Shown piece by piece: positions 13,428 through 31,436 of a stretch of 43,703 nt of DNA. The translations under genes were made by a program, and so were the position numbers. The notes beneath the pieces were generated by a model. The model searched no databases, was not told the DNA's origin, and saw only the letters and a program-made list of their open reading frames with translations. This DNA comes from a virus, in IMG/VR virus record IMGVR_UViG_3300032435_000019. The stretch is one strand, 5' to 3'. Positions within the stretch are counted from its first letter, which is position 1. Every line of letters starts with the position of its first letter.

Positions 13428-13492
13428 GGTTCGGGATTGCGTCCTGGTTTTTGTAAACCTCGGCGCTATCCTTGCCCACTGTCGGGCGGAGT

Positions 13493-13512: not shown

Positions 13513-13566
13513 TGGTACGGGGAGGGTGGAGCCTGCCTGGGCGGCGGGCTCCGGATTATTGGCGCG

Positions 13567-14279: not shown

Positions 14280-14291
14280 GGTCGCTCTCCT

Positions 14292-14723: not shown

Positions 14724-14748
14724 TCTGTTGCTCTCCTGGTGGTGCGGC

Positions 14749-15000
14749 CTATCGGCGGCCGCGGGATTTTAGGTATTCACGCGCTAGCGGGTAGACGTTG
14801 CTGGGGACCCTGTAATTCGGGTCGGCCTCTAGTCTCCTGGCGTGGTGGATGGTTATTGCCGCGGTGTTCCTGGCGTGCGCCCTGGCTAGGTCCTCCAGGT
14901 GCAAGTTCTCGTCGGCGAGCGTTAGTGTAGGCGCTTCGCCTCGAAGGAATTGCCGGATGAGTCCGCTGGCTATTGTCCTGGGATTGGTTGACTGGTTCAT
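14749..15000 (-). CDS. Hypothetical protein (83 aa), with the start trimmed to the internal ATG
   Basis: The track ORF 14749..15198 has an Arg-rich N-terminal extension that overlaps the upstream gene. The ATG at 15000 lies 2 nt after that gene's stop (MNQSTNPRTIASGL...). Confidence 0.55.
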   Translation of the reverse strand: MNQSTNPRTIASGLIRQFLRGEAPTLTLADENLHLEDLARAHARNTAAITIHHARRLEADPNYRVPSNVYPLAREYLKSRGRR

Positions 15001-15002
15001 GC

Positions 15003-15233
15003 TTATTCCTCGACCCGTTTTATTATTAGATGCGTGAGCTGGTTTCGTAGTACGAGCAGCGCCTCGTCTGTTTTGCGACGCAGCTCCTCGTCTATGCTGA
15101 ATGAATACTCGATGGCAACGTGTAGCGTGCGGAGGATCGCCTCGTCCATGAATTCGTCCTCTAGCAACTCGACGAAGGCGTCGGGGTCCTCCCAGCAAAG
15201 CGCGGCGTATCGTTCTGCAGGCGACTGGCTCAT
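15003..15233 (-). CDS. Hypothetical acidic protein (76 aa), with a trimmed start
   Basis: The internal ATG at 15233 forms an ATGA overlap with the upstream stop (MSQSPAERYAALCWEDPDAF...). The longer track ORF is Arg-rich, off-frame-like sequence. Confidence 0.55.
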   Translation of the reverse strand: MSQSPAERYAALCWEDPDAFVELLEDEFMDEAILRTLHVAIEYSFSIDEELRRKTDEALLVLRNQLTHLIIKRVEE

Positions 15234-15448
15234 AACGTTTCGTATCTCCCGCTGCGGACGATTCTCCGGAGGGTCTGTATGTCGGATTCGAGGCCTCGTA
15301 GCTCTAGCCGGAGCGCGCTGGCGACGTTTCGGTCGCCTCGCTTTTCCGCGTCCCTGGCGTCTGCCGCTAGCGTGAACCACCGGCCTTGCAGGTCGTGGAG
15401 CTCGTCCTCGGGGTCGTGGGTGAATACTGGCGCTATTGGCCCGCTCAC
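15230..15448 (-). CDS. Hypothetical protein (72 aa), with a GTG start
   Basis: The GTG at 15448 overlaps the TAG of the upstream gene (TAGTG). The sequence is VSGPIAPVFTHDPEDELHDLQGRWFTL... The start assignment is tentative. Confidence 0.4.
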   Translation of the reverse strand: MSGPIAPVFTHDPEDELHDLQGRWFTLAADARDAEKRGDRNVASALRLELRGLESDIQTLRRIVRSGRYETL

Positions 15449-15741
15449 TATTTGGTCCTCGCATAGTAGGACCCGTTTAGCTCTATTACCTCGATGCAGT
15501 CGCGTGCGTGGAGGCGCGCTACCGCAATCATCGGCTCCTTTGTTATGTTTACCCATTCGTCGAGCGGGTTTACCGGTGCGAAGTTTCGAAGCGGCGTGAA
15601 TCGCTCACCCTTGTCTCCGGCTTTCGTGGAGGCCCACGGCTTATTAGCAAGGCGGGCCCTAAAGGCGTCGCGGTGTGCGTCTAGCTTGTCGGCCAAAGCT
15701 AGCGTGATGTTGCGTAGTTCGTTTTGCTCTGCTCTGTTCAT
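15448..15741 (-). CDS. Hypothetical protein (97 aa)
   Basis: ORF with plausible composition, in an operon with its neighbours. Confidence 0.6.
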   Translation of the reverse strand: MNRAEQNELRNITLALADKLDAHRDAFRARLANKPWASTKAGDKGERFTPLRNFAPVNPLDEWVNITKEPMIAVARLHARDCIEVIELNGSYYARTK

Positions 15742-15776
15742 GGTGCTCCCCTTTTTTGGTAGTTATTGTTGTGGTG

Positions 15777-15986
15777 CTATTGGTCGCACGCTTCCTGCGG
15801 CGCTTCGTCGGAAACGTCGAGGGTTAGGCGTGCGATGGTGTTGCCGTTCTCGTCGCGCAAGGGCGGCGGGTCGGTAAAGTCTGGACAGAAACTTGCTTGA
15901 TGTAGGAGCTGGCGTGCTAGCTCCTGGTCGGTGAGGTCGTATATTGCGGCGTGGTATCGGTTAACCACTTCTATGGTTATTTTCAT
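15777..15986 (-). CDS. Hypothetical protein (69 aa)
   Basis: ORF with plausible composition. No motif. Confidence 0.55.
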   Translation of the reverse strand: MKITIEVVNRYHAAIYDLTDQELARQLLHQASFCPDFTDPPPLRDENGNTIARLTLDVSDEAPQEACDQ

Positions 15987-16028
15987 GTCGTTGTCCTTTT
16001 CTCATATCGTTGGTGGTGCCCGCTGATT

Positions 16029-16265
16029 CTAATACGAAAGGCGGGCGGTGAGTCTAGTCTTTTTTGCCCTGGCCGATGATGCTTTTCCGGCGTCGTGCCG
16101 GAGGTCTACTGCGGCGTCGTATGCCGCTGGGCTGTTGGTGGCTAGCTTCCCGAGGTAGGAGTTTACCGACTTGAGGTATTCCTGCCGCGGGATGCTCCTG
16201 GGTAGCGCCTTGATGCGGGCCTCCTCGGCCATCGTGGCGGCTATCGCCCTGGTTAGGGCGCTCAT
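16029..16265 (-). CDS. Hypothetical protein (78 aa)
   Basis: ORF with an ATGA overlap to the upstream gene. Confidence 0.55.
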   Translation of the reverse strand: MSALTRAIAATMAEEARIKALPRSIPRQEYLKSVNSYLGKLATNSPAAYDAAVDLRHDAGKASSARAKKTRLTARLSY

Positions 16266-16741
16266 GCTTTGGTTGCGAAGGTTATAGCGCGGATCAGGGG
16301 GAGGAGCTTGTATCGCTCTGCTGTCGAAAAGTCGCCGAAGCTCACCGCCGTTTGGCCTGGGCGCTTTTTAAATAAGCGCCAGCTTCGGTCGTCGCCTCTT
16401 GAGTCTAGGGTCCCGACGTAGCCTATGGATATACTCTCGGGTAGCTGCCGCTTGTCGTAGGCGTCTAGCTGGGCGTTGAAGCGGCTAATGCGGGCGGCAT
16501 CGGATTCGGTCTCTAGTTCGGCGAAGGGGACGCGCTTTTCTATTTCCGCGGCGTTGACTATGAATTTGCTCGATCCCTGGAACTGGACCGTCGGTTTCGT
16601 TTTGTCTCCGTTGTGGAAACCGTTGATTATCCTTGAGACCCTGCCCAAACGTAGCAGGCTACGTCGGCGCATTCGATCTTGGCCGTCGCGGGTAGGTACT
16701 GAAAAGGTTATTTTGTCGCCGATGTTTAGCTCGATGGTCAT
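16262..16741 (-). CDS. Hypothetical protein (159 aa), first gene of the embedded early-type island
   Basis: First ORF downstream of the terminator and CCGGTAT-box region. No motif. Confidence 0.65.
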   Translation of the reverse strand: MTIELNIGDKITFSVPTRDGQDRMRRRSLLRLGRVSRIINGFHNGDKTKPTVQFQGSSKFIVNAAEIEKRVPFAELETESDAARISRFNAQLDAYDKRQLPESISIGYVGTLDSRGDDRSWRLFKKRPGQTAVSFGDFSTAERYKLLPLIRAITFATKA

Positions 16742-16816
16742 GGTCGTTCTCCGTTTCGTTGGTCTGGTCTATGTCGTTGGTGTTCGGTGTTGCCTGGGGC
16801 TTAGACTACCAAGTCT

Positions 16817-16929
16817 CCGGTATTAAGCAAGCCGTAGCCGGTATTTAATGCTCTGAATACCGGAAGTAGATCAATGTTTATGCCGGTATCGCTGGGATGG
16901 GCCCAGGATCGCTCTGTGCTGTCCGGTAT
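16817..16929. promoter_or_regulatory. Array of five CCGGTAT boxes (operator/iteron-like)
   Basis: CCGGTAT occurs at 16817, 16838, 16883 and 16923, and inverted (ATACCGG) at 16857. Copies 2 and 3 form the palindrome CCGGTATT-N10-AATACCGG. The array lies in the 258-bp gap upstream of 16741. Confidence 0.6.
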
Positions 16930-16938
16930 GTTCGAGGC

Positions 16939-16963
16939 AAAAAAAAGGGCCCTATATGGGCCC
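16939..16963 (-). terminator. Rho-independent terminator after 17000..17302
   Basis: Minus strand reads GGGCCC-atata-GGGCCC followed by TTTTTTTT. Confidence 0.7.
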
Positions 16964-16999
16964 GAGGGGTATTCTCAGAATGGTACGCCGGCGGCGTTG

Positions 17000-17302
17000 C
17001 TAGCTTCGCACGCGTGCTGCTACGCGCTTCTCAAAGTAGGCGACTTCGCCGATGGCCGATAGGATGCTGATGTGCGCTCGGTGCTCTCCCGCTGGGAGGT
17101 CTAGCGTATGCGCGAGCGTTCCCTGGTAGAAGCCTGGGTCTCGCTCCGTCAATACCAAGGCTTCGCCGAGGGCGGTGCCGTCGGTGTCCTTGATGGTGAC
17201 GGTTATGGTGGCCCCGGTTACCGGCTCACCGTCGGCCTGATTGATTACGTTGCTGACGGTGAGGAGGTTGTCGTTGCCGATGTAGAGCTGCAGCGGGTTC
17301 AT
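17000..17302 (-). CDS. Hypothetical beta-rich protein (100 aa), possibly Ig-like
   Basis: ORF with the segment LLTVSNVINQADGEPVTGATITVTIKDTDGTALGE, which is typical of Ig-like phage domains. This is inference. Confidence 0.55.
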   Translation of the reverse strand: MNPLQLYIGNDNLLTVSNVINQADGEPVTGATITVTIKDTDGTALGEALVLTERDPGFYQGTLAHTLDLPAGEHRAHISILSAIGEVAYFEKRVAARVRS

Positions 17303-17306
17303 TCGA

Positions 17307-17519
17307 TTACTCGGGCAAGTCCTGTGCGGTGTCGGCCACGTTCAGCGCGACTGCGCCTGGGACCAATTCGCCCTGCTCGCCGGTCTCGGGGTCCTTTGCC
17401 CATCCCAGGTCGATGTAACGCTGCGCTTCGTCCTCGGGGAAGCCTCGGCTGTCTCCGGCCTCGTATTCCTCGTGATTGATGCGAACGGTAGTCACAAATT
17501 CTATCTTACGTTTTGCCAT
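17307..17519 (-). CDS. Small protein (70 aa), possible paralogue of 10617..10898
   Basis: N-terminal similarity to 10617..10898, as noted for that ORF. Confidence 0.6.
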   Translation of the reverse strand: MAKRKIEFVTTVRINHEEYEAGDSRGFPEDEAQRYIDLGWAKDPETGEQGELVPGAVALNVADTAQDLPE

Positions 17520-17534
17520 GTTTGCGGTCTCCTA

Positions 17535-17897
17535 TTAGGTCGGGTCGCGGAGTTCATGTTTGAAGGCGGCCGTATCGACGGTGCCTCCGGCGGTCAATGC
17601 CTGGGATGCTGATGTAGTGATCCGACGAATCGCATCGGTGCCGTTGCTTATTACAACATGGTTTGCGGTTCCGGTGTTCGTAATACTGATGCCGGTCTGC
17701 GCTGGGCAGGTTGTCTTGCGCCCGCTGACGTCACCGTTGGCTTTGGTGTGCGCGCCTACGCCGGTAAGCTTTTGCGCGAGCATTACCGCGGCGATGCCTG
17801 CGTAGTTTGCCGGCTCTGCGGAGCAAATATGGATTGCGTCGCCCTCGGTGAGCGTGAGCATTGCGTCGAGTACTGTAACGGGGATTTTCTTAGCCAT
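17535..17897 (-). CDS. Hypothetical protein (120 aa), possibly structural
   Basis: ORF with a good RBS context and Gly/Thr/Ala-rich composition. No motif. Confidence 0.6.
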   Translation of the reverse strand: MAKKIPVTVLDAMLTLTEGDAIHICSAEPANYAGIAAVMLAQKLTGVGAHTKANGDVSGRKTTCPAQTGISITNTGTANHVVISNGTDAIRRITTSASQALTAGGTVDTAAFKHELRDPT

Positions 17898-17908
17898 GTG
17901 GTGTTCTC

Positions 17909-19612
17909 CTAAGTTTCTATGGTGCCGTCGATCAATGGGATCGCTATTAGCTCGCCGGAGCCTAGCAGGGCGACGAGGGTAATCGTGGCGTCTAGCTCAA
18001 CGAATACCAGCGCGCCGCTGGCTGCCAAACTCAATAGTTGAGCTTGCGTTGTATCGCTTATCGCTAGCACTGAGTATTCGTATATGTTCGCCTGCTCGCC
18101 TTCCTGGTCCTGGCTGCTATCGCCCGGGGCGACTGTGGTCGCCTGTAGCGCTAGCGTGACGGTCTCCGCTAGCTGCGCCTGTAGGGCGTCGTTTATGGCG
18201 AGGATGTAGTTTGGCGTGAGCGCTGCGGTGTCGGATAGCTGCTGCTGCCCGAGCGCGTCTGGTGCTATTAGGCCGGCGACCGTGATTGTGGCTGCCGATA
18301 GTTCCTGGCTGGCGTCTGATCCGTCGGCCTGGAGGCTGCTGCGCTGCGTGAGGGCGACGCTGTCGCTTATGGCTATACCTTCGCTCTGGTTGGCGACTAG
18401 GACGTAGCCCTGCGTGAATGCGGTGCTGTCTATGAACTGCTCGGCTTCGCTTCCCTGGATGGTGAGCTGGTGCTTTTGGGTGATCGCTGCTGCTTGCGCT
18501 TCCTGGACCTGCTCGCTGCTGGTTGCCGATAGCGTTCCTGCTTCGGTGAGGTTCGGTGCTTCTGAGGTCTGTAGTTGGTCCGCTGCGTCTGCTGTTATCT
18601 GGCTTTGCTGCGTTAGCGCCGGCTCCTGGGCTTGCTGCTCCTGCAATGTGACGGCAGGCGCAAGGGCGCTTGCCTGGGTGAGGGCCGCGGTTTCTGTGGC
18701 CTGCTCCTGGTCTGTGGCTTGCGGTCCGAGGTTGCTACGCTGAGTAAGGACTACCGATACAAAATTGATCGGCTGTTCTGAGATTTCCGGCGCTAGCTGG
18801 TGCTTTTGAGTCAGCGCCGCCTCGTCTTGCTCCTGGTCCTGCGCCGCGTCGGTGCCTGCTAGCTGATGCTTTTGCGTGAGCGTTACCTGGGCGCTGTCCT
18901 GGTCCTGCGCCGCGTCGGTGCCTGCTAGCTGATGCTTTTGCGTGATCGCCGGAACGCCCGACTGCTGCACTGTGGCTGAGTCGTTTGGTCCGTGGGTGTC
19001 GTTCTGCGCTAGCGTGGTGGTTCCTTGCTCGTGGTTCTGGTCGCTGCCGTTTACTGTGACTATATCGCTGTAGCGGAGCCGCACTTCGAAGCTGTCTATG
19101 TATCCGTTGCCCGATGAATTCTGGACGTTGTTGTTTGTGAGGAGCCAAAAAAGGCCGAAGTCTGCTGATTCAACTTCCGCGATGGTGAGGTTGGTCATTC
19201 CGTATACGGGAGGGCTTTGCTGGGTTGTTCCTGTGCCGCCGTTGCCGGTGTTTATTAGGGGCGCAAGGCCAAAAAAATTGGGGTTTATTGGTGCGGCTGC
19301 GTTCCTTTTTCCGAATACCTGCGCCTGGATGATACCGCCGGCCGATACCGCTTCGCTGTAGCCTTTGACGCGCCACTGTATTTCTTCTATTCGGCGGCCC
19401 GCTGGTATTGAGTCGGAAGCAAAGCCGAATCCGGTGATAGACCATATATCGGTTATTTGACCGGTGAATACACCGCCCTTTGTCAGCGGCTCGGTGTTTG
19501 TGGCGTATGTGGAGTCGGGCTCACCGGTGACGTTGCCGCCGTTGTTTATTGATGTTGCGGACGCGGATTTGAATGCTGCGGCCGTCGGTCTCCTCCATGC
19601 TGTAAAAGCCAT
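17909..19612 (-). CDS. Fibre-like protein with about 11-12 tandem 22-residue (A/V)LTQ repeats (567 aa)
   Basis: A globular N-terminal domain of about 190 aa is followed by periodic units: ITQKHQLAGTDAAQDQDSAQVT / LTQKHQLAGTDAAQDQEQDEAA / LTQKHQLAPEISEQ... / LTQRSNLGPQ... and so on. A hydrophobic C-terminal domain follows. Confidence 0.7.
   Translation of the reverse strand: MAFTAWRRPTAAAFKSASATSINNGGNVTGEPDSTYATNTEPLTKGGVFTGQITDIWSITGFGFASDSIPAGRRIEEIQWRVKGYSEAVSAGGIIQAQVFGKRNAAAPINPNFFGLAPLINTGNGGTGTTQQSPPVYGMTNLTIAEVESADFGLFWLLTNNNVQNSSGNGYIDSFEVRLRYSDIVTVNGSDQNHEQGTTTLAQNDTHGPNDSATVQQSGVPAITQKHQLAGTDAAQDQDSAQVTLTQKHQLAGTDAAQDQEQDEAALTQKHQLAPEISEQPINFVSVVLTQRSNLGPQATDQEQATETAALTQASALAPAVTLQEQQAQEPALTQQSQITADAADQLQTSEAPNLTEAGTLSATSSEQVQEAQAAAITQKHQLTIQGSEAEQFIDSTAFTQGYVLVANQSEGIAISDSVALTQRSSLQADGSDASQELSAATITVAGLIAPDALGQQQLSDTAALTPNYILAINDALQAQLAETVTLALQATTVAPGDSSQDQEGEQANIYEYSVLAISDTTQAQLLSLAASGALVFVELDATITLVALLGSGELIAIPLIDGTIET
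18831..18945. repeat. 66-bp-period tandem duplication inside the fibre-like gene
   Basis: The 49-nt string tcctggtcctgcgccgcgtcggtgcctgctagctgatgcttttgcgtga occurs at 18831..18879 and again at 18897..18945. Confidence 0.9.
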
Positions 19613-20044
19613 TTAGAAGTCACCGACTAGTTCGGCGAAATACTCGGCCTGCATCTGCGCTGCAAATACGGGGTCGAGGGTGTTTAGCTTTTCCTCTAGG
19701 TCGTCTGGAAGAACGCCGTAGCCCTTTGCGACGAAGTTTATGAACCTATTGCCGCCGAATGATTCCATGCCCATGCGAGCGAGGTCGTCCCATAGCTCGG
19801 GGTCAAACATTTCGCGGAGGTAGCGGTGGCAATAGATAAACGCGCCGACGTAGCAGCAATACTCTGGCTTAAATTCCAGGCTGGCTGTTATCCAGCCGCC
19901 TACGGTGTCGGCTCCGGCGTTGTCTAGGACGAACGACATAACGTGGTCCTCGAAGGCACAACTGTCTAGGCTATGCCCGCGGAGGAAGGACTCTTTTAGT
20001 ATCGCCAGGGCAACTTCCGCGCTCGGCGAGTTGCGGTCGTACAT
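19613..20044 (-). CDS. Hypothetical protein (143 aa)
   Basis: ORF that abuts both neighbours. No motif. Confidence 0.6.
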   Translation of the reverse strand: MYDRNSPSAEVALAILKESFLRGHSLDSCAFEDHVMSFVLDNAGADTVGGWITASLEFKPEYCCYVGAFIYCHRYLREMFDPELWDDLARMGMESFGGNRFINFVAKGYGVLPDDLEEKLNTLDPVFAAQMQAEYFAELVGDF

Positions 20045-20401
20045 TTAGCGATCCTGGCGTGACTGGATTAGGAACGGCGTTATCGCGTCCACTCGGTTTT
20101 TGATGTTGTTGTCGGTGAGGTCGATTATTTCCTGGATCGTTTTGCTCTTGTTGTCGGCGAGTAGGATATTCGTGACCCTGGCGGTCTCGTGCACGTTGGT
20201 GGTGTCGCGCAGGAATACCTGAGCCCATATACGGTCGCCCTTCGCTGCGTCGAGCGTTGGCTGGTCTCCGGCGGCAATGTCGAGGATAGCTTGATCGACT
20301 ATTGCCTGCGCTGCGATCTTAATTGCGGTGCGTACACGCTGCATGAATACGCGGCCCTCGGGACTTTGGACGAAGTCGTCTAGCTGGATGTAGTGTGCCA
20401 T
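20045..20401 (-). CDS. Hypothetical protein (118 aa)
   Basis: First ORF downstream of motif copy C. No motif. Confidence 0.6.
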   Translation of the reverse strand: MAHYIQLDDFVQSPEGRVFMQRVRTAIKIAAQAIVDQAILDIAAGDQPTLDAAKGDRIWAQVFLRDTTNVHETARVTNILLADNKSKTIQEIIDLTDNNIKNRVDAITPFLIQSRQDR

Positions 20402-20472
20402 TGTTGTACTCCGGTGCTGGGGTGTTTGCTGTTTTGCGTAGGTGGCTAGTGTCGCGCCGGTGCTGCCGCTTT

Positions 20473-20490
20473 ACTAATTGGGATTTTTCG
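20473..20490 (-). promoter_or_regulatory. Conserved late-region element, copy C (minus strand CGAAAAATCCCAATTAGT)
   Basis: Shares the core GAAAAATCCCAA-T-A-T with copies A and B. It follows a terminator directly and lies about 70 nt upstream of the ATG at 20401. Confidence 0.45.
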
Positions 20491-20494
20491 GGCG

Positions 20495-20530
20495 AAAAAA
20501 AGCCCCGACGCTAGGGGTTAACCGTCGAGG
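20495..20530 (-). terminator. Rho-independent terminator after 20575..21153
   Basis: Minus strand reads CCTCGACG, a 12-nt loop, then CGTCGGGG (one G-U pair), followed by CTTTTTTT. Confidence 0.65.
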
Positions 20531-20574
20531 CTAAAGGCTTGAGCGGCTTGGGTGAGCGCTCTCGCAGGGGAAGG

Positions 20575-21153
20575 TTATTCTAACCCGGCCGGTAGCTGGT
20601 CGCTAGCGCCGTCGTCCCAGGGTAGGTCCGGCCATAGCCTTGCCTGATCTGCTTCGTGCTGCGCGATTGCTGTGATCCAGGCGCGGCCTTCCTGGTGCTG
20701 CTCGCCGCAGTCCTCGCAAATGAGCTTTTCCTCGCCTTGCTCTATGTAACTCTCAAAGGCGAAGCTGCCGCAGTCCTGGCACGTTGGGTAGTCGGCTGGC
20801 GAATGGTCCCGCTCCTGGTCGCTTTGGAATAGCGCGGGCATATAGCTCCCTGGCTGTAGCCGGTGCATGACCTGCCATACGTCGCTGCAGGCGTCGTGGT
20901 ATTCCGCGTCGGGGATGCTTTTCTTAAAGTTGTCGTAGGTTAGCGCGTTGATTTCGCCGAGCATCATTTCTTTGAAGTCGCCGTCGCTTACCGTGACGCG
21001 GTATTTGTAATCGGCGTTGTTTAGCTGAGTGACCTGCTTGCCTGGAAATAGCGCCTTGAGGTGCTCCTGGCGTCGGGCTCGGATCATAAAATCGTCCGGC
21101 TTGTTCCGGTGCCTTACTGCGCTGATGAATCCTTTGCTGGTGAATACCCACAT
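20575..21153 (-). CDS. Moron-like gene: conserved-looking N-terminal domain plus a C-terminal CxxC...CxxC zinc ribbon (192 aa)
   Basis: The ORF has its own extended -10 upstream and its own terminator downstream. The zinc ribbon is CQDCGSFAFESYIEQGEEKLICEDCGE. Confidence 0.7.
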   Translation of the reverse strand: MWVFTSKGFISAVRHRNKPDDFMIRARRQEHLKALFPGKQVTQLNNADYKYRVTVSDGDFKEMMLGEINALTYDNFKKSIPDAEYHDACSDVWQVMHRLQPGSYMPALFQSDQERDHSPADYPTCQDCGSFAFESYIEQGEEKLICEDCGEQHQEGRAWITAIAQHEADQARLWPDLPWDDGASDQLPAGLE

Positions 21154-21189
21154 GGCGTTGCCTATTTTTGGTGTTATTTGCCTGGGCGC

Positions 21190-21198
21190 ATTATACCA
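21190..21198 (-). promoter_or_regulatory. Extended -10 promoter element TGGTATAAT (minus strand)
   Basis: A perfect TATAAT preceded by TGn, 37 nt upstream of the ATG at 21153. There is no good -35, and an extended -10 may not need one. Confidence 0.45.
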
Positions 21199-21200
21199 AC

Positions 21201-21233
21201 AATTACCGGCGAAGGCTTTAGTCTGCCGGTAAT
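21201..21233. promoter_or_regulatory. Inverted repeat ATTACCGGC-N14-GCCGGTAAT, a near-relative of the CCGGTAT box
   Basis: The 9-bp arms are perfect. The repeat spans the stop codon of 21218..21541 and abuts the extended -10. Confidence 0.4.
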
Positions 21234-21541
21234 ACGATATCGAGGCTGTCTTGAAGAACCTTCCTGGCTTCGTCCCTGGTGCCGTCCGGTGATGGGCCCT
21301 GGTTCTTATATATCTGGAAATCGTCGGCGTCTAACGCTATCCAGCCGCCTCCCTGGATTTTGTGCTCCTCGAAGGTGCCGGATACTTTGTGGCATGGCTG
21401 CCCTGATCCTGGGTAGTTGTTTGCCCAGCCGTGGTCGATGAATGCTATGCCGTCCGGCAGGTCGAAAACGTGCGCGGCGTAGTAGTCACCGGCCCCTATC
21501 TGGATAGACTTTCCCTGGGCGCTGTATTGTCCTGGTGTCAT
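21218..21541 (-). CDS. Hypothetical protein (107 aa)
   Basis: ORF with an ATGA overlap to the MuF gene stop. Confidence 0.65.
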   Translation of the reverse strand: MTPGQYSAQGKSIQIGAGDYYAAHVFDLPDGIAFIDHGWANNYPGSGQPCHKVSGTFEEHKIQGGGWIALDADDFQIYKNQGPSPDGTRDEARKVLQDSLDIVLPAD

Positions 21542-24500
21542 CTGACTAGCTCTCCGTTGACTCTAACTACTTCAGTGACTGATCTGCCGTCCGGCCATGT
21601 GCTGTAGCCTTCGTTTTTTAGGAACTTGATTATCTCTATTCGCTCCCGATTGTTTGCGGCGTTAATGTAATCTAGGTCGTCGAAGATTGATAGGGTGTCT
21701 TTGACGATGGTTTCGTTCGTCGATCTAGCTATCTCCATTAGGTCCTGGACCTTTGTTTGCCTGTTCGTCTGGACATAGTCCTGAACAAAATCAGGGCCGC
21801 TTGATTCTTGCGCGTTGGGGACGTAGTCGAACGTTCGGCCGTACTTGTCGCCATCGTAGCTTATGGCGTCGCTTCGTGCGGCGACCTTCGCCTTCCAGAC
21901 GATGCTCCCAACCTTTGCCTGCTCTGCGGTTTTTATCCTGGTGAAGAAATAGGTAGCGCCTCCGCTGTTTAAGTCGGGCCCTGGGCTCATTCCGTCTATG
22001 CTGACGCCGCGCCTTATTTTGTCTGCCGTCGGTGCCATTTGGCCGCCGCCGTTGACGAGTATTTTGATGTTATTGAGCACGCTTCCGTTCGATGTGAATC
22101 GGTGAATAACACGGTGGTTCTTTTCGAATCCCTCCCATTCAGGGTGCCCTAATAGTTCAGGCCGGTAGCGTGTTCTGCGTCCATGCTCAAAGGCTTGATG
22201 CTCGCCTTCCGGCCGGTAGTGCACGTTGTCTATGTCCACGCCTGACGCCTTGCTGATTAGCGCCTTCGCTTTCGCGGTGTCTCCGGCCTTTATCGCTGCG
22301 ATGAAATCGGCTTTTTTGTCCAGCCGGTGGATATATCCGAGCTGCTGCAGATAGAGCATTTCCTGGGATGCGGCGCTTGCCCTGGTGCTGTCTATTCCTA
22401 GTTGCTCTATTGTTTCGAATATCTTGCTGGATGCTGGCAGGCCGTTCCCTGGGACCTCTATATCTACGCGCCCACGCAACGCTGCTTTGACTTCTGGAAT
22501 GTCAGGGAAGTAGCGTATCTTGACGCCGTCTATTTCGGCCTCGAATACCTTAGTTTGAACGACCGCTCGGCTGCTGGTTTCGCGGTGGTAAGACTTATCA
22601 AGTTGATTGAGGTTGTAGGTGTGGTTTTCTTTTTCCAACCATCTAATCGTGCCGGCCTCTGGCGCTTTTAGCTTGGCGGCCCCAATATTGAACTCCTCGT
22701 ATAGCTCAGTGAGATTTTTATCCCACACTGGAGCCGATGCGGCGATGCTGTCCTTGATCTGCTTTATATATGGCTCTATTTTTTTCTGTATTTCTGTGAC
22801 CGATTTCTGCGCCCTTGTTCCTGCTGCCACTTCGGCTTTGAGTCCGGCGATCATTTCGTCGTAGCTGTTGGCGGCAATCTGTAGCTTGCTTATGGCCGAG
22901 CCGAGGCTGGTCTCGTTGTTATCTATGCGGTGCCGGATGGAGGTAGCCGCTTTTTTTATCTTTTCGTGGACGTCGTTGTAGTTCGCTGGCGCTGTTGTGG
23001 TCTGCGCGAGCATCCTTTCGGCGGCTTCGCCCTTCACTTTGAAATAGGCTGCGGTGATTTCGTTCTTGTTTGCGTCCGTTTTATGCCAAACGAGAACGCT
23101 CTGGTCCTCGATGCTGTCTTTGTCAGTCGGTACTGCGTAGCCATTGATTCGGCTGTTGTTGACGTTCTCTAGCTCGATGCGCGTGACTCGCTCTCCGGTG
23201 TCTACTATTGCCGCCGGCGTCCTGGTCCTGGCCTCGGGGAAGGCTTCGAGGATAAACTCCCTGCGCGCCTTGAGCGTGGCCGCGAGCGTTTTCCTGGCTC
23301 GGCTATCCAGGGGCCCGTAGTTCTTGATGAGGTCGTCGATCTTGTCGTCGGTGAATAGCGCGACTTTGCGGGCGCTTTCGATCAATTGCTCCTGTGTCAT
23401 GCTCCCGAATACCGAGGCGGACTGGGAGTTATATTGCGGGCTGCGTAATGATTCTATCTCCTGGACTATGTCGCCCCACTCTGTGCCCTTAAGCGTTCCC
23501 TGGGCCCTGTAACGGAGCGTGCCGCCGGTGTCTACGCGTACCGCTCTGCCGCCCTTGAGTAGTAGATTATCAAAGCCCTGACCTACGACGTCCCAATTGG
23601 CTAGCCATGCGTCGACCATGAAACCCTCGGCCGCTCCTGGCGCGCCGGCCTTGAGTGCTGCGCTGTTTGATTCCAGGCCGTCGATGATCTTGCTGGCGAT
23701 CTGGTCCTTGCCCTGGAAGTTGACCATTTGAACCTGGGGCGCGTCTATGCCGGCAGCTTCGTATATCTTAGCGCCGAGTACTTCGTTGCGGCCGTTGTCG
23801 ATGGACTTCGGTTCCTTGATGTACCACTTCACGCCGGTGTCGGTGTCCTGGTATAGCCCGCCTGGGTTCGATCCTCCCTGGCCGCCGATCTTTGTCATGC
23901 TGTCGGGATTGAATTCGGTCTCTGCGGATACGACTTTGGCCTGGACGACTGGTGCGTCCGGTGCGGCCGGATCAATATTTGCCGCCTCATTTGAGGGCTC
24001 AATTGTTGATGTGGCCTTGTTCGCCTTCGCCTTTTTCGCATCTATATCGGCGAGGACCTTCGCCTTCGCTGCGTCGTCTAGGCCGTTGAATATGGTCTGC
24101 TGTTGCGGGCTCGGGATTTTGCCTTCGAGGACCTTTTTCTTATAGCCGCTGATTACCGCGGAGATCTTACCCGTTGCCATTTGCGCGTCGGCTTCGTCCT
24201 GGATCGCTTTGACGAGGCCCTTGTAGTCGGTTCCGAAGCCCGCGGCTGTTCCGTCGATGCTGAACTTCTCGAATAAGGTCTGCTGCAGCTTCATCTGCTT
24301 GGGCGCTTTGCCGGTGGCAATGGCGAGGATTGCTTCCTGCGCTGCTGCCTGCCCGCTCTTGACGTCTATGTCGTACTCTAGGACGCCTTTCGCTTCGTCC
24401 GATAGCGTGGCAACGTGCGCCGCTGATGCTGGGCTCGGTTCCTTTCCGGCGATCTTTGCCTTTTTGTAATTGGCTTCCAGGGCTTTTCCTTTGTAGTACG

Positions 24501-25509
24501 CCGCTTTCCCCTGGGCCTTGGCGAGCGCTTCGGTCGGGTCGATGCCTGGATTCTTTGCGATTATCTTTTTGAGCTCGGGCGCGAGGTATGGCTCCTTGCT
24601 GATTAGCGCGTCGTCTATGGCCTGCTGTGCCTGGGCCTTTACGGTGCTGAGTTTCTGAACCTCTAGGTCCTTCGCTATATCGGCCTTGTAGGCTGCTTGC
24701 ATCACTGCCTGTTTGCCCTGGGCTGCTTTGACGGCCTTGCGCTGCCGCTCCAGGAGGCTCTTGGCTTTGTCGTCGGCCTGGACTAGCAGATTTTTCATCC
24801 TGGCGAGGCCTGGGTTGTGGTCCCAGCCTGGGTCGGTGCCGATGGGTACTTTGTGGAGCGTTCCGTCCTTCGGGTTGGTCCAGTCCTTCGTTTTAATGTC
24901 CGGCTTTTTGATTGGCGTGAGCCCGAGGTCTTTTATGTCGTCCTCGTCTAGCTGTATCACGCCGCAGCGGCAATTCCAGCCGTTGGGAGGGAAGTGCGTT
25001 TTCCAAAAATCGGAATATACGGGGTGCACTTGATTGTCGAGCGCTGCGTGCTCCGGCCGGACCCTGAAGTCGTCCACGGCGTCGTATAGGAGAAACGGTG
25101 CGTCTTTGGCGTTTTTCGCTATCTTGTCCCAATGGCCTACGCTGTAGGCGCTTTGCAGGTTGCTTCTGAATATGGTCTCTAGGCGCGTGGCGCTGCCGAG
25201 CTGGGCCTTTACGACTAGGCCGGTGCTCGGGTCTATGACGTCCTTTTTGCCCCACCATCCGGCCTTCTGTAGCTCGGGGATTAGCTCCTTCTGAAAGTCG
25301 GCGAAGGTCTTACCTTCCTGGAGCGCTTTGCCGAGCCGCTCCTGGACCGTCGCTAGCAGGTCGGTGTCCATCATTTTGGCTACGGTGAACGCGGCGTCGT
25401 GCTCGTCGCCCAGCATTTCGTACCAGTTGAAGGTTGGGGATAGCCCTTTAGCCTGGATGAACTTGACGGCGTCGACCGGCTCTAGGTCGAACTGCGCGCT
25501 TACCTCCAT
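21538..25509 (-). CDS. Polyvalent head protein: MuF/SPP1 gp7-like minor head domain, Ala/Lys-rich linker, kinase-like domain and a C-terminal PARP-like ADP-ribosyltransferase domain (1323 aa)
   Basis: MuF domain: aa 1-235 with the NGWNCRCGV signature, directly after the portal gene. Kinase-like domain: aa 535-735 (GGQGGSNPGG, VKWYIK, RNEVL, DVVGQGFDNLL, VDTGG). ART domain: aa 1125-1285 (VIHRFTS, GGATYFFTR, STNETIVKD). Confidence 0.85.
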   Translation of the reverse strand: MEVSAQFDLEPVDAVKFIQAKGLSPTFNWYEMLGDEHDAAFTVAKMMDTDLLATVQERLGKALQEGKTFADFQKELIPELQKAGWWGKKDVIDPSTGLVVKAQLGSATRLETIFRSNLQSAYSVGHWDKIAKNAKDAPFLLYDAVDDFRVRPEHAALDNQVHPVYSDFWKTHFPPNGWNCRCGVIQLDEDDIKDLGLTPIKKPDIKTKDWTNPKDGTLHKVPIGTDPGWDHNPGLARMKNLLVQADDKAKSLLERQRKAVKAAQGKQAVMQAAYKADIAKDLEVQKLSTVKAQAQQAIDDALISKEPYLAPELKKIIAKNPGIDPTEALAKAQGKAAYYKGKALEANYKKAKIAGKEPSPASAAHVATLSDEAKGVLEYDIDVKSGQAAAQEAILAIATGKAPKQMKLQQTLFEKFSIDGTAAGFGTDYKGLVKAIQDEADAQMATGKISAVISGYKKKVLEGKIPSPQQQTIFNGLDDAAKAKVLADIDAKKAKANKATSTIEPSNEAANIDPAAPDAPVVQAKVVSAETEFNPDSMTKIGGQGGSNPGGLYQDTDTGVKWYIKEPKSIDNGRNEVLGAKIYEAAGIDAPQVQMVNFQGKDQIASKIIDGLESNSAALKAGAPGAAEGFMVDAWLANWDVVGQGFDNLLLKGGRAVRVDTGGTLRYRAQGTLKGTEWGDIVQEIESLRSPQYNSQSASVFGSMTQEQLIESARKVALFTDDKIDDLIKNYGPLDSRARKTLAATLKARREFILEAFPEARTRTPAAIVDTGERVTRIELENVNNSRINGYAVPTDKDSIEDQSVLVWHKTDANKNEITAAYFKVKGEAAERMLAQTTTAPANYNDVHEKIKKAATSIRHRIDNNETSLGSAISKLQIAANSYDEMIAGLKAEVAAGTRAQKSVTEIQKKIEPYIKQIKDSIAASAPVWDKNLTELYEEFNIGAAKLKAPEAGTIRWLEKENHTYNLNQLDKSYHRETSSRAVVQTKVFEAEIDGVKIRYFPDIPEVKAALRGRVDIEVPGNGLPASSKIFETIEQLGIDSTRASAASQEMLYLQQLGYIHRLDKKADFIAAIKAGDTAKAKALISKASGVDIDNVHYRPEGEHQAFEHGRRTRYRPELLGHPEWEGFEKNHRVIHRFTSNGSVLNNIKILVNGGGQMAPTADKIRRGVSIDGMSPGPDLNSGGATYFFTRIKTAEQAKVGSIVWKAKVAARSDAISYDGDKYGRTFDYVPNAQESSGPDFVQDYVQTNRQTKVQDLMEIARSTNETIVKDTLSIFDDLDYINAANNRERIEIIKFLKNEGYSTWPDGRSVTEVVRVNGELVR

Positions 25510-25522: not shown

Positions 25523-27037
25523 TTAATTTTTGCGTTCTCCGCGGAGCATTCCGAGGAGCCTGCCCATTACGGTGGCCCGCTGTACGGTGTCGACTATCTC
25601 CTGGGGCGCGGTCTCCTCCATCATGTCGGCGATGTGCTTTTTGAATGTTTCGAAGTCCTGGTTCTCCTCTAGGTATCCGAGGAGCTGCTCGACCCGCTTG
25701 CCGTAAAGCTCTTTGTATTTGGTGGCGAGCCCTGCCGCGGCGTCTGCTAGTAGTTGCTGGTCGTTCCGGTGCCCTGCCCTGGCTGCCAGGAGGCTGCTTA
25801 TCTCGGCGAACTCCGCGGGCATAGGTCCTTGCCCTCCGGTCATTAGTGCCGGCGGGACAACGGCTTCCTTGCGCTTTTCCCAGCCCATGCCGTAGGTGTC
25901 CTCGATGTATTCGAGGGTCGGGTCGTAGCCTAGTGCGTAGATTTTGGCGTCGCGCTCGGCGCGATGATTGAGGTCCTCCGGCGGCGCTGTGTCCCGTACT
26001 ATCGAGGGCACGCCTGCGCCTGGGAAGTTCCACTCGGTTAGCCACTTGCCGGCGGTCCTCTTGAAGCTGTCGGCTATTAGGTCGCCGTCTGCGTCGGTTA
26101 GGTCGTTGGCGACGCCCTGGTGCACCTCGGCCTGGGATCGGCTGCTGCCGCTGTCCGTGGTCATGGTCTGCGATAGGATTACTTTCGATATTGCGCCGTC
26201 CATCTTTCCGGCTAGCTGGGCGTAGTCGGCGGTTCCGGATCGGGCGGCCTCGATTAGCTCTATGACCATGCTGTCGGGTATTACGACGCCGCTGTCCTGC
26301 TGAATAGATTGGAGGGCCGACTTGGCTTTGCGTATCTGTACCGGGTCGTTCATTTGGCCGTCGGGTATTCTGATGGCGGTGGTTGGCATCCCGAATTTCT
26401 CAAGGAATACGAGCCAGAACTTTATGTCGTTGCGCTTAAAAAATACCGGCCAATAAAGCGAGTGCGCGAGGCCCTGGCCGTAGGGATTGTCGTCGTGGCT
26501 TGCGCCGGCGGCGTAGGTCCAGAACTTGTTTTCCGGCATGACGAGGCCCTGCGAGTGCTTTAGGTCGTCCATTAGCATTAGCTGGTTGTCGACGTTCCAC
26601 TTGAAGCGGGAGCGGTCGCGGACCTTTATCGCGTCGAGGCCGACTTTGTTGTCCTCGGTCATGCCCCACATGAATTCCGCTACGCTGAATCCGTAGAATA
26701 CGCCGTATAGCATCTTGTCGGTTATGTCGTCCCAGCCAACTTTCTCTAGCTGCTGCCGGAGGAATTCCGCGGCCGCTTTGTCTGTTGCCGATTCGCTTTC
26801 CGAATCAATTTTCCATGTGGAACTTGTTAGCGCGCTGCGGCGCTGCTGAAAGCATGACTTGACCTGATCGTCGCGTAGGAGCTCGTCGTATACCTTGAAG
26901 TCGGGCCCGCGGCTTTTGAGCACGCTGTCCGGATTCTGGATTAGCATGTGGGTGTAGGCGTAGCTCATGGCGAAGCCGTGATCGTCGTGCGCCATTTCCT
27001 GCTGCAGCGGTTTTGCTGGTTTCTTTTTGGTAGCCAT
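25523..27037 (-). CDS. Portal protein (Mu gp29 / DUF935-like)
   Basis: 504 aa, between TerL and MuF. The N-terminal pattern ...NPDSVLKSRGPDFKVYDELLRDDQVKSCFQQRRSAL is typical of DUF935 portals. Confidence 0.9.
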   Translation of the reverse strand: MATKKKPAKPLQQEMAHDDHGFAMSYAYTHMLIQNPDSVLKSRGPDFKVYDELLRDDQVKSCFQQRRSALTSSTWKIDSESESATDKAAAEFLRQQLEKVGWDDITDKMLYGVFYGFSVAEFMWGMTEDNKVGLDAIKVRDRSRFKWNVDNQLMLMDDLKHSQGLVMPENKFWTYAAGASHDDNPYGQGLAHSLYWPVFFKRNDIKFWLVFLEKFGMPTTAIRIPDGQMNDPVQIRKAKSALQSIQQDSGVVIPDSMVIELIEAARSGTADYAQLAGKMDGAISKVILSQTMTTDSGSSRSQAEVHQGVANDLTDADGDLIADSFKRTAGKWLTEWNFPGAGVPSIVRDTAPPEDLNHRAERDAKIYALGYDPTLEYIEDTYGMGWEKRKEAVVPPALMTGGQGPMPAEFAEISSLLAARAGHRNDQQLLADAAAGLATKYKELYGKRVEQLLGYLEENQDFETFKKHIADMMEETAPQEIVDTVQRATVMGRLLGMLRGERKN

Positions 27038-29120: not shown

Positions 29121-31436
29121 CTATAGGTTAAGTTCTGAATCCATCGCCGCTAGCTGCAGCGCCTCTAGGTCTACGGTTTTCACTTCGCCGATGGTCTCGG
29201 TGGCTAGCTTCGGGTCTCCTTTACAAAATACCATGACGTTGTCGTATGCCTGAAATACTGTGCGGTGCACTTTGAAGTGGTCTGCGACCGCTTTGCTGAG
29301 TCCCTTTATGTCGCCCAGGCTGGGCTCGCCTTTTGCGAATACCAGCGCGTTCTGGTGCCCTTTCGCTAGCTTCCGGCTGCTGCTGAACATACCGCCGGCG
29401 CGCATGGCGTTGCTTCCTATGTTGGTAAGCAGCACCGCCTCGTTGTAGTAGTGAAGGCCGGCCGCCTGGAAGGCCGCAATGGTATCCTGGACGAAACCCC
29501 TGTAACGCCCTTTGGGGTCTCGTACTTCGCCGACTACGAATACCGCGAATCTGTTGTCCTTTAGCATTTTGCAGCTTTCGCCGATTATGTGGGTGTAGGC
29601 CGCTATAAATTCGTGATATTCGAGGGTCGATAGGTCCTTCGGGTCGTCGCTGTAGACTTCCAGGTCGGCGTATGGAGGGCAACTAAAAACCATATCGTAT
29701 TCGCCTGGGGCGTGTTTTCGGACTTCCCTGGAGTCGCCTTCGATCCATCGCGGCTCTCCCTGGGCCTGTCGCATTATATCGAATGTGCCGACGTCGCCTG
29801 CTACGTTCCAGAATAATGCGCCTTCGCTGGCGTGCTCCTTGATGAATCTCCAGGCTTTGGCGTCGTAGTTGTTGCATGACTCGAAAGGCGGCGGCTGTTT
29901 TGCTGGGTCCTCGAACTTTTCCGGAGCCTCGTATAGCTTAGCCCTTCCGACCTGGGGGTCTTTGCCTATGGCTACCGCGTGGAATTCAGCGTCAGGCCAA
30001 GCCTGCTGTAGCGCCCTGGTTAGGACGCCGCTTCCTGCTACGGTCCAGACTTCGGTCGGTGTTTCTCCGGTCTCTAGCGCGACGGCCGCTATGGCGTCGA
30101 TGAAGTCCTGGTTATCTAGGCCGAATTCGATGTAGTGCGCGCCGGTCTCCTCGGCGAAGTCTCGGGCGGCCTTTTGGGTGGCGATTAGGTATCTCGCGTC
30201 GACTTCGTGGACTACTGCTCCGGCTCGCGCTGCGGCTTCGGTCCTGGCGTGCGGCTTTTTGCGTCGGCCTGCGACGAATATATGCGCTTGCTTCCCTGTT
30301 GCCCTGGCTGCGGCCGCTAGCGCTATTTGCGCGAAACCATAGGCCGGTGTGGCGTACACGAAGGTGGTCTCGGGAGAGGCGGCGAGCACTCGCTCTAGCG
30401 CCCTTCGTTTGGTGCCGCCGAATACATCGTCGTCGCGGAGTACTCGGATGCCGTCGTGCTCCTGGATTCTGGTTGGTGGTAGGTCTGCCGCCGGCTTCCC
30501 TGGTGTTTGGGCTCCGAGTATTTTGAAGGCCTGTTGTCGGTTAGCCTGTATCTGCTCGCCGCGTAGGTCGATGCCGGTGTAGTTGTAGCCGAGGAATCCT
30601 GCGACCAATCCGCGGACGCTGCCGCCGGCGAACGGGTCTAGGATCGCGCCGCCTGGAGGGCAAAACCATGAGTAGCTTATCTCGGTTAGCACCGGGTCGA
30701 ATATGCTTGTTCCGGTTAGCGTTATCTCCTCGGGGAATTCCTCGACGAACTCCTGCCAGGTTAGCTTGCGCCCGCGCTGGGCTTCTACCTTGTTTTTGAA
30801 TTCGTAAACGCCTGGAGGCTGGCTGCTGACGGCGTAGGTTAGGCCGCGCTCTGTTTTGTCGCCCTCGTTGCCGCGGCCTAGTTCTGACTGGATGCCTAGT
30901 TGTAGCCATAGGTTCTTGCGGTCCTTCCAGTAGCCCTGCTTGGCGTCTAGCACGCTGAATGGCGGGACGAGGAAGCGCTGCTGTAGTCCTTGGCGCGCTT
31001 CCTCCTGCTGCCCGCCTCCGAAGTCCGGACCGTCGTCGGATAGTAGGCTTTGGAGAAATGCGTTCGCGGCCATATCGCCGACGCTGTGTATGCCTTCGAT
31101 TAGGTCGTCTAGTAGTCCCTGGTCCTGGGTGGCGAGTGCTGATATTGGGTCTATTGCTGCTAGCGCGATCCGCTCCTCGTTCTCGGATAGCTCGACGTAT
31201 TTTACCGGCACGCGCTCGCTCCGGCTCATGGCTAACTGAACGCGGAGGTGGCCGTCGATGATGTGGCCGGTGGTGGTGTTGACTATGACGTCCTGAATCC
31301 AGCCGATTTCATTTAGCACGCCGGCTAGCGCATCTTGCTGGTGCTTTGGGTGGTAGCGGAAGTTGTGCGGGTTGGCTAGTAGCTGCTCGGGGTCCTCGGT
31401 GCCGCTTCCGGTGATTCTGTTTTTCCAGTCGGTCAT
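29121..31436 (-). CDS. ParB-like domain / DNA amino-methyltransferase fusion, carrying an inserted PLP-enzyme-like domain (771 aa)
   Basis: ParB/Srx-like domain at aa 15-100. MTase motif I is LDPFAGGSVRG (aa 266-276) and motif IV is FSCPPYADLE (aa 584-593). The segment aa 322-548 resembles ACC deaminase / D-Cys desulfhydrase (IRVLRDDDVFGGTKRRALERVL, TVAGSGVLTRAL, ALFWNVAG). Confidence 0.85.
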   Translation of the reverse strand: MTDWKNRITGSGTEDPEQLLANPHNFRYHPKHQQDALAGVLNEIGWIQDVIVNTTTGHIIDGHLRVQLAMSRSERVPVKYVELSENEERIALAAIDPISALATQDQGLLDDLIEGIHSVGDMAANAFLQSLLSDDGPDFGGGQQEEARQGLQQRFLVPPFSVLDAKQGYWKDRKNLWLQLGIQSELGRGNEGDKTERGLTYAVSSQPPGVYEFKNKVEAQRGRKLTWQEFVEEFPEEITLTGTSIFDPVLTEISYSWFCPPGGAILDPFAGGSVRGLVAGFLGYNYTGIDLRGEQIQANRQQAFKILGAQTPGKPAADLPPTRIQEHDGIRVLRDDDVFGGTKRRALERVLAASPETTFVYATPAYGFAQIALAAAARATGKQAHIFVAGRRKKPHARTEAAARAGAVVHEVDARYLIATQKAARDFAEETGAHYIEFGLDNQDFIDAIAAVALETGETPTEVWTVAGSGVLTRALQQAWPDAEFHAVAIGKDPQVGRAKLYEAPEKFEDPAKQPPPFESCNNYDAKAWRFIKEHASEGALFWNVAGDVGTFDIMRQAQGEPRWIEGDSREVRKHAPGEYDMVFSCPPYADLEVYSDDPKDLSTLEYHEFIAAYTHIIGESCKMLKDNRFAVFVVGEVRDPKGRYRGFVQDTIAAFQAAGLHYYNEAVLLTNIGSNAMRAGGMFSSSRKLAKGHQNALVFAKGEPSLGDIKGLSKAVADHFKVHRTVFQAYDNVMVFCKGDPKLATETIGEVKTVDLEALQLAAMDSELNL
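29793..30473 (-). other. Inserted fold-type II PLP-dependent-enzyme-like domain within the methyltransferase (aa 322-548)
   Basis: GGTK(343)RRALE matches the GGNKxRKLE Schiff-base lysine motif. AGSG matches the phosphate-binding Gly loop. This is a motif match by eye only. Confidence 0.6.

Follow-up and report, generated by a model that had tools for sequence, protein, structure and literature searches.

A phage MuF-family minor head protein with an appended HipA/CtkA-like kinase domain and DarT-like ADP-ribosyltransferase domain, a candidate two-enzyme injected effector

The subject of this analysis is a 1323-residue protein from IMG/VR virus record IMGVR_UViG_3300032435_000019, a stretch of 43,703 nucleotides that was analysed at its full length and that we call the window. 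The protein is encoded by an intact open reading frame (ORF) on the minus strand, 21538..25509. We read it as a MuF-family minor head protein carrying a two-enzyme effector module of about 800 residues, which would be delivered with the phage DNA to modify the host, and we give this reading a probability of roughly 0.6. The first enzyme would be a Ser/Thr-type kinase of the HipA/CtkA branch and the second an NAD+-using ADP-ribosyltransferase (ART) with a His-Tyr-Glu (H-Y-E) triad and a fold nearest to that of DarT. Judging from their sequences, both domains appear to be catalytically intact. By analogy with MuF/SPP1 gp7, T4 Alt and the polyvalent proteins, the MuF domain would build a few copies of the protein into the capsid, these copies would exit with the DNA at infection, and the enzymes could then phosphorylate and ADP-ribosylate host macromolecules in the first minutes, in order to take over the cell or to disarm its defences. 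Probably the kinase and the ART would act jointly, with one target or pathway in common. For capsid incorporation and ejection there are precedents in SPP1 gp7, Mu F and T4 Alt (reviewed in PMC5512222). The protein is divided as follows, with positions in amino acids (aa).

24790..25509, minus strand: MuF (Mu gpF / SPP1 gp7-type) minor head domain, aa 1-240 (Pfam PF04233)
23905..24789, minus strand: Ala/Lys-rich region, aa 241-535 (composition, phrog_220 alignment, effector-less MuF relatives)
23215..23904, minus strand: HipA/CtkA-like protein-kinase-fold domain, aa 536-765 (AlphaFold2 model, Foldseek, conservation, HipA_C matches of relatives)
22555..23214, minus strand: conserved middle region between kinase and ART, aa 766-985 (small beta segment and long helices)
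22159..22554, minus strand: N-terminal alpha/beta subdomain of the C-terminal module, aa 986-1117 (part of the AlphaFold2 model)
21541..22158, minus strand: DarT-like ART-fold core, aa 1118-1323 (AlphaFold2 model, Foldseek, conservation)

The same 1323-aa protein is found, identical, on 12 contigs of independent metagenome assemblies, so the long fusion ORF is no assembly artefact. The original prediction, made from the letters of the window, had described a MuF head protein fused to a kinase-like domain and an ART and had quoted nine motifs for this. All nine are present, in residue as well as nucleotide position: NGWNCRCGV at 176-184, GGQGGSNPGG at 542-551, VKWYIK at 560-565, RNEVL at 574-578, DVVGQGFDNLL at 640-650, VDTGG at 659-663, VIHRFTS at 1134-1140, GGATYFFTR at 1183-1191 and STNETIVKD at 1263-1271. 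The motifs are more than chance resemblances, because their catalytic positions are 93-100% conserved across 136-171 homologous domains and fall on the expected elements of the models. Conservation was counted throughout on representatives clustered at no more than 50% identity (171 domains for the kinase and 136 for the ART). The proposed catalytic residues are kept in these homologues at 91-100% across both domains, and the structure searches that had been suggested returned kinase-fold and ART-fold matches alike.

The MuF/SPP1 gp7-type N-terminal domain that had been proposed is confirmed by profile searches. PF04233 (Phage_Mu_F) matches the aa 54-184 core at 2.8e-19 (70.4 bits against a cutoff of 29.6), with NGWNCRC at aa 176-182, TIGR01641 matches above its threshold (1.8e-10, 41.2 bits against a cutoff of 39.65), and aa 9-236 share about 41% identity with Mu gpF. 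The stretch after it had been described as an Ala/Lys-rich linker of about 300 aa. Its composition agrees with this (Ala 20.1% and Lys 14.0% in aa 236-534), but it is not a mere linker, as the phrog_220 alignment spans aa 3-468 and makes it in part a conserved Mu-F-type extension. It probably serves as a spacer or tether that is partly shared with MuF proteins lacking an effector. Among cultured phages, Stenotrophomonas phages QH16, Suso and StM171 and Xanthomonas phage HXX_Dennis are closest. They align over aa 1-384 with 44-46% identity, and their MuF proteins consist of MuF and linker only, ending at about 500 aa (506 aa). Since these relatives share aa 1-384 and then end near residue 500, the window protein amounts to a normal MuF-plus-linker protein with about 800 residues appended.

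The AlphaFold2 model of the kinase domain, made from 15 homologues, is confident (predicted local distance difference test, pLDDT, 83.6). Its top Foldseek match in the PDB is the H. pylori Ser/Thr kinase CtkA (3akl), with an E-value of 1.5e-5, a probability of 1.0 and a template modelling score (TM) of 0.53. Ranked below it, with lower TM, are sugar and aminoglycoside kinases, LepB and many protein kinases of the eukaryotic type, and among the matches listed out of some 2000 further ones kinases dominate. The model has the bilobal kinase fold with the full catalytic set (Gly loop, Lys, Glu, Asp, Asn and metal Asp). Residues G546, S547, G550, K565, E576, D633, D640, N648 and D660 are 91-100% conserved, the catalytic ones at 96% or more, and the Gly-rich loop is G546-G550. 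Together with the CtkA match this conservation bears out the protein-kinase-like fold that had been read from the motifs. In the model the catalytic residues are located as follows.

K565: beta3 lysine, at the end of the third strand
E576: helix-C glutamate, in the helix after the third strand
D640 and N648: catalytic Asp and Asn, in the catalytic loop
D660: metal-binding Asp, directly past the strand pair

As modelled, aa 536-765 belong in the HipA/CtkA branch of the protein-kinase-like fold, because CtkA is the top match, because kinase copies of relatives match HipA_C and because a sister subfamily has the catalytic loop DWLIANHDGHSKQF, which is nearly the same as the E. coli HipA loop WLIGATDGHAKNF. 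The HipA_C matches were seen in 6 of 25 and 6 of 22 relatives, the best at 1.7e-18 and some below the 30.5-bit cutoff. We do not file the domain as a member of the HipA family, because the window's own copy falls short of the Pfam HipA models, with no match to HipA_C (PF07804) even at E<=10. What it has in common with HipA and CtkA is the Lys-Glu-Asp-Asn-Asp catalytic set. What sets it apart from HipA is a catalytic loop lengthened by three residues between Asp and Asn (D640...N648), the lack of any model match to the HipA N-terminal domain (apart from MuF, the whole protein has no Pfam match at E<=1) and the lack of a HipB-like partner, no helix-turn-helix or HipB-like Pfam match being found among the neighbouring genes scanned. 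CtkA (PDB 3AKJ, 3AKK, 3AKL) is encoded by an integrative and conjugative element and is thus, like the window gene, borne on a mobile element that transfers DNA.

The AlphaFold2 model of the C-terminal domain has a pLDDT of 83.4 and a predicted TM of 0.79. In the PDB, Foldseek ranks 1-8 are DarT chains only, from four sources (Thermus, M. tuberculosis, E. coli DarT1 and Thermosipho), with probabilities of 0.66-0.98, a best E-value of 1e-2 and TM on the target of 0.27-0.52. Next in the list come two entries of the ART-like OspC3, and beyond these is noise. DarT, the toxin of DarTG and a DNA thymidine/guanosine ADP-ribosyltransferase (PDB 7OMX, 7OMY, 8BAQ, 7YK3), is therefore the best and almost the sole structural match. 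The confident matches in BFVD are granulovirus ORF30/ORF32, small mimivirus and klosneuvirus proteins and a Bacillus phage polyvalent protein, and the baculoviral group to which ORF30/ORF32 belong (ORF28-like) is related to DarT by Iyer et al. (PMC9503650).

The triad residues stand on the model strands in the expected order, with H1136 in strand 153-158, Y1187 opening strand 208-215 and E1266 in strand 286-291 (model numbering). They are conserved at 94%, 93% and 100%, respectively. Invariant alongside them are R1166, G1168, S1175, D1179, G1183-G1184, R1212, D1214, D1221 and G1224, and further key residues of the ART core are G1155-G1156 and R1191. The catalytic residues of DarT are H13, R51, Y71 and E160 (PMC9967889). 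Its H13/Y71/E160 are comparable to H1136/Y1187/E1266 in order and spacing, and both proteins have an Arg between the His and the Tyr: R1166 comes 30 residues after H1136 and DarT R51 comes 38 after H13, so that going by spacing the two may be equivalent. The window ART differs from DarT in having no profile similarity to it, in a TM of only about 0.5, in its place at the C-terminus of a 1323-aa protein and in its extra N-terminal subdomain. In the model of this subdomain (aa 986-1117) strands lie at model residues 10-39 and helices at 45-110, with a pLDDT of about 76-97, and it is kept in Pan1 phage and metagenome homologues. A DarG-like partner (macrodomain or NADAR) was not found in the ten downstream genes scanned, and the upstream genes are portal and terminase.

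The original prediction had called this domain a PARP/diphtheria-type H-Y-E ART. The ART fold and the conserved triad, in order, have stood; the likeness to PARP and diphtheria toxin has not, since DarT has the nearest fold, none of the 45 Foldseek PDB matches is a PARP or diphtheria-toxin chain and no Pfam PARP or toxin family matches. Neither PF03496 nor any other ART family of Pfam matches the window protein, and with its invariant Glu the domain does not show an H-Y-D or Arg-Ser-Glu (R-S-E) signature. The ART assignment rests on predicted-structure similarity together with motif and context arguments. As modelled, the domain is an H-Y-E ART-fold enzyme nearest DarT, and not a demonstrable member of the DarT family.

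The context arguments come from the distribution of the module. When aa 520-1323 were searched exhaustively with HMMER against 1.84 billion representatives, 4936 proteins matched at E<=1e-3 and 1297, counted as representative clusters, at E<=1e-30. Kinase and ART occur together in 128 of the 147 top representatives, nearly always C-terminally and separated by the middle region, and all three are found together in 121 of the 147. In Pfam the middle region gives sub-threshold coiled or helical noise only. Many relatives that phmmer overlooked have a MuF domain as well, often with NUDIX, Zeta-toxin, Hint or nuclease domains. Among 25 larger MuF-kinase-ART relatives NUDIX is present in 11, and Zeta-toxin, Hint/intein and DUF559 nuclease domains in a few; the co-occurrence with NUDIX points to NAD/ADP-ribose-related chemistry in the wider family. 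Additionally, we collected 160 ART-bearing ORFs from species-representative genomes and IMG/VR contigs. The N-terminus is complete in 124, and of these 110 have MuF, kinase and ART while 5 have no kinase. Going by these sequences, MuF-kinase-ART is the standard architecture of the family. The portal is the upstream gene in 8 of 10 diverse loci, and the hosts include Endozoicomonas, Desulfobacterota, Verrucomicrobiota, Nitrospirota, Hydrogenedentota and others. A tblastn search of 50,697 deposited phage genomes with aa 770-1323 found Pseudanabaena phage Pan1 only, which has MuF and ART and no kinase; the whole kinase-middle-ART module occurs in none of these genomes.

A group of 1550-aa MuF-ART proteins was at one point considered as kinase-less. 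This was ruled out when an unfiltered search found a divergent HipA-like kinase in them. Loci L016-L034 (e.g. L034:4341-9011) encode a MuF/divergent-kinase/ART protein of exactly 1557 codons from stop to stop. It recurs at the same spacing in genomes of very different taxonomic assignment, among them Geobacteraceae, Verrucomicrobiota, Ectothiorhodospira and Desulfosarcina, and a 1.3-kb contig binned with a methanogen holds a related fragment. The presence of the 1557-codon protein in such distant taxa suggests either a highly mobile phage or prophage, or binning artefacts.

The pairing of the two enzymes becomes most apparent when the DarT-like domain is replaced. We looked at 22 proteins that have the same kinase family without a DarT-like domain. 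Pfam finds ADPrib_exo_Tox (PF03496) in 10 of them, the arginine-specific ART family PF01129 in 5 and DRAT in 1, and in 13 an R-S-E ART follows immediately after a kinase copy. The metagenomic protein P0166 (3416 aa) has five tandem kinase/R-S-E-ART pairs, and P0160 and P0163 have two each, so that, judged by sequence, kinase and ART form a unit that can be repeated like a cassette. Cultured phages of 90-95 kb, such as Pseudomonas phages Jeremy and Dolphis and Yersinia phage fHe-Yen8-01, likewise combine the kinase (42-46% identity over aa 536-760) with a PF03496 ART in proteins annotated 'ADP-ribosyltransferase'. Compared with the window protein, theirs have an ART of the R-S-E exoenzyme type, lack MuF and lie outside the head module. 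That recognised ARTs take the place of the DarT-like domain gives independent contextual support for the window's C-terminal domain as an ART. The replacement also suggests that kinase and ART work together, and the near-obligate pairing of one kinase family with several unrelated ART clades suggests a shared mode of action.

Several observations weigh against the reading of the protein as a capsid-delivered enzyme pair. The kinase domain (aa 536-765) has no Pfam, NCBIfam or PDB sequence match, also when a 15-sequence profile is used. Compared by hhalign with E. coli HipA as a single sequence, the kinase profile aligned over the helix-C 'NE' segment only, at a probability of 2.7%; this comparison with one sequence was not used as evidence. 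The C-terminal domain has no profile match in Pfam and PDB, be it as a single sequence or as a 15- or 26-sequence profile. More specifically, the Pfam DarT family (DUF4433/PF14487) does not match the window domain or 26 diverse homologues at E<=10, the PDB profile search did not retrieve DarT, and NCBIfam has no match to aa 520-1323. The structural likeness behind the ART assignment is itself modest, with a best E-value of 1e-2, a TM of 0.5 on the target and a root-mean-square deviation of 6.6-7.6 Å. Virion delivery is not universal for the cassette either, because the proteins of the 90-95 kb phages lack MuF and are encoded outside the head module. Finally, HipA and DarT are growth-arresting toxins. 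The benefit to a phage of injecting mimics of them is not obvious, and the real substrates may differ.

A first alternative concerns the target. The ART could act on nucleic acid, either blocking host DNA replication or repair or protecting phage DNA, DNA ends or RNA, with the kinase acting on a separate protein. DarT is the only solved family found at high probability, DarT-related baculovirus ORF28-type proteins are among the BFVD matches, the invariant R1166 at 30 residues past the His could be the counterpart of DarT R51 at 38 past H13, and the invariant R1191 and R1212 could bind phosphates. Additionally, MuF/gp7-type proteins sit at the portal, close to the DNA end. Against this, Pfam DUF4433 does not match at any threshold, the correspondence of R1166 and R51 was judged by spacing only, no DarG-like macrodomain partner is among the adjacent genes scanned, and sister cassettes carry at this position R-S-E ARTs of the Alt/VIP2-like and arginine-specific kinds, mostly protein-modifying enzymes. 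The DarT-like fold and the invariant arginines thus favour nucleic acid as the ART target, and the interchange with protein-type R-S-E ARTs favours protein. On balance we think it unlikely, though with a real chance of being right, that the nucleic-acid version is the correct one. If it is true that the DarT-like domain modifies nucleic acid, this would be an offensive use by a phage of the chemistry of the bacterial DarTG defence.

A bolder version of the injected-effector reading can also be put forward. The protein would then be an obligate two-enzyme cassette performing an undescribed coupled modification (e.g. phosphorylation-primed or phosphate-directed ADP-ribosylation of a host protein or nucleic acid), delivered by the capsid, with the DarT-like enzyme maybe acting on DNA or RNA; it would represent a new and very widespread class of injected effectors, with the 107-aa gene downstream (below) as neutraliser. 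We regard this as speculative and would give it only small odds. Slightly more doubtful still is the view that kinase and ART form a two-step machine on one substrate, where a phosphate is the acceptor or docking site for ADP-ribosylation or where the kinase phosphorylates the ADP-ribose adduct. Phosphate-directed ADP-ribosyl capping is known from Tpt1. The pairing is near-obligate and its order constant, the kinase preceding the ART in every case; it outlasts swaps of the ART for unrelated families and reaches five tandem pairs in one protein, and the NUDIX domains in 11 of 25 larger relatives would fit as well. However, co-occurrence cannot tell sequential chemistry from independent hits on one pathway or from regulation between the domains, and both Pan1, the sole cultured-phage homologue of the ART, and 5 of the 124 complete ORFs do without the kinase.

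The genes directly downstream bear on a further alternative. Two of them recur next to the effector gene in other loci.

21218..21541, minus strand: small gene of 107 aa, whose start overlaps the effector stop by 4 nt (ATGA)
20575..21153, minus strand: 192-aa gene with paired CxxC motifs like a zinc ribbon, recurring downstream of the effector gene

The 107-aa family lies directly downstream of effector-bearing MuF genes in 45 other loci, at a median offset of -33 nt, with R, W, P-x-H and G as conserved residues. HXX_Dennis, whose MuF gene has no effector part, lacks the family at this position. The 107-aa protein has no match in Pfam or PDB (PDB noise only). As a speculative suggestion, it is a candidate neutraliser or immunity protein, or a chaperone, which may protect the producing cell from the enzymes or aid packaging. 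Homologues of the 192-aa protein are downstream in 13-23 loci, some of them distant (CPR bacteria, Eubacteriales, Verrucomicrobiota); its Pfam matches to zinc ribbons are weak and below cutoff, and the PDB gives noise only. The largest cluster of 'downstream ORFs' was discarded as a partner, as it consists of off-frame low-complexity ORFs in GC-rich DNA.

A conserved small gene overlapping the 3' end is at the usual site of polymorphic-toxin immunity genes. The protein could therefore be a toxin for competition or exclusion, like the MuF polymorphic toxins of temperate phages, that kills or arrests rivals or non-immune cells and gives no aid to the phage's own infection. HipA and DarT both being toxin families, and the module being mostly found in prophage-like loci of bacterial genomes, would agree with this. 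The window gene, however, is inside the head module of a siphovirus head-tail region, and the C-terminal module is kept as a unit, without the variation of a swappable tip within close relatives. We consider this a slim prospect, a little below the two-step machine. That the C-terminal regions are non-enzymatic, that is structural or morphogenetic extensions of MuF with motifs left over as fold remnants, is hardly credible: beyond MuF no curated enzyme family matches the window protein, but genuine Pfam ARTs are at the equivalent position in sister proteins, and decayed domains are unlikely because the canonical catalytic positions of both folds are retained at 91-100% across very divergent homologues.

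Taking the protein as an injected two-enzyme effector, we can compare it to systems already described. To our knowledge, injection of MuF-fused and polyvalent effectors has been predicted, and very few of them have been tested. These effectors, as described by Iyer et al. (2017, PMC5512222; 2022, PMC9503650), likewise have a MuF head domain encoded by the portal gene's side, followed by host-modifying domains that include ARTs and kinases. There, the ARTs are of the H-Y-D type (Tox-ART-HYD2 / N4-like) or the Alt/VIP2 R-S-E type, and the polyvalent kinase lacks the C-terminal lobe and is found in Verrucomicrobia, Chlamydia and Bacteroidetes. The window protein differs from these in its H-Y-E triad with DarT as the nearest fold, and in a HipA/CtkA-like kinase that keeps its C-terminal helices. 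The passages of PMC5512222 and PMC9503650 that were consulted make no mention of a fixed kinase-ART cassette. Functional precedents are T4 Alt, a capsid-packaged and injected R-S-E ART, and the T7 Gp0.7 kinase, which re-programme host transcription and translation proteins (PMC5512222). Both are unrelated in sequence to the window protein, which joins the two predicted activities in one polypeptide and fuses them to MuF.

In the searchable open-access literature, the coverage of which is incomplete, we met with no account either of HipA/CtkA-like kinases paired with ARTs or of this DarT-like family. This agrees with the original prediction, which had not recognised the domain combination as characterised. 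What is known already, then, are MuF-fused ARTs and polyvalent-protein kinases; what we did not find described are the HipA/CtkA-like kinase-ART coupling and the DarT-like family. Neither enzyme domain is represented in Pfam, although both come from a large family whose members are spread over many bacterial phyla and IMG/VR, and the enzyme pair is widespread among uncultured phages. The window offers a compact complete phage genome with one such protein, and K565, D640, E1266 and R1166 are clear positions for point mutants.

An exact 127-bp direct repeat is found at the ends of the window (1-127 = 43577-43703). This makes the window a complete phage genome with 43,576 unique bases that is either circularly closed or terminally redundant. 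Its gene set is siphovirus-like, including the tape measure, major tail, major head and protease, and almost every gene is on the minus strand. The effector gene starts 13 nt past the portal gene, confirming the adjacency that had been proposed, and the large terminase gene precedes the portal.

25523..27037, minus strand: Mu-type portal gene (phrog_113, 3.7e-113; PF06074 Portal_Mu precomputed on source contigs)

A megablast search with 20 kb of the window against the 50,697 phage records gave no match. The nearest relative of its packaging module is on a 78.8-kb contig of a Pseudomonadota metagenome-assembled genome (locus L003, JBCDKJ010000009.1). Here the large terminase (TerL) matches at 1e-231 and the portal at 1e-213, the ART domain of the effector is 50% identical, and homologues of the 107-aa and 192-aa genes are present too. 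This kinship suggests a Pseudomonadota host for the window phage.

About 8 kb of mostly unannotatable genes lie inside the head module, at 13428-21217, between the MuF effector gene and the prohead protease. Pfam finds only a single-stranded DNA-binding protein (SSB) in the ten genes between effector and protease, at 14292-14723 (PF00436, 1.6e-35), and a 567-aa ORF at 17909-19612 has no PHROG or Pfam match. Xanthomonas phage HXX_Dennis has an insert of small genes directly after its MuF gene as well. Just upstream of the terminase genes, at 29121-31436, is a 771-aa protein in which a ParB-like nuclease domain is fused to a DNA methyltransferase (phrog_498, phrog_620), a combination typical of polyvalent or anti-restriction proteins.

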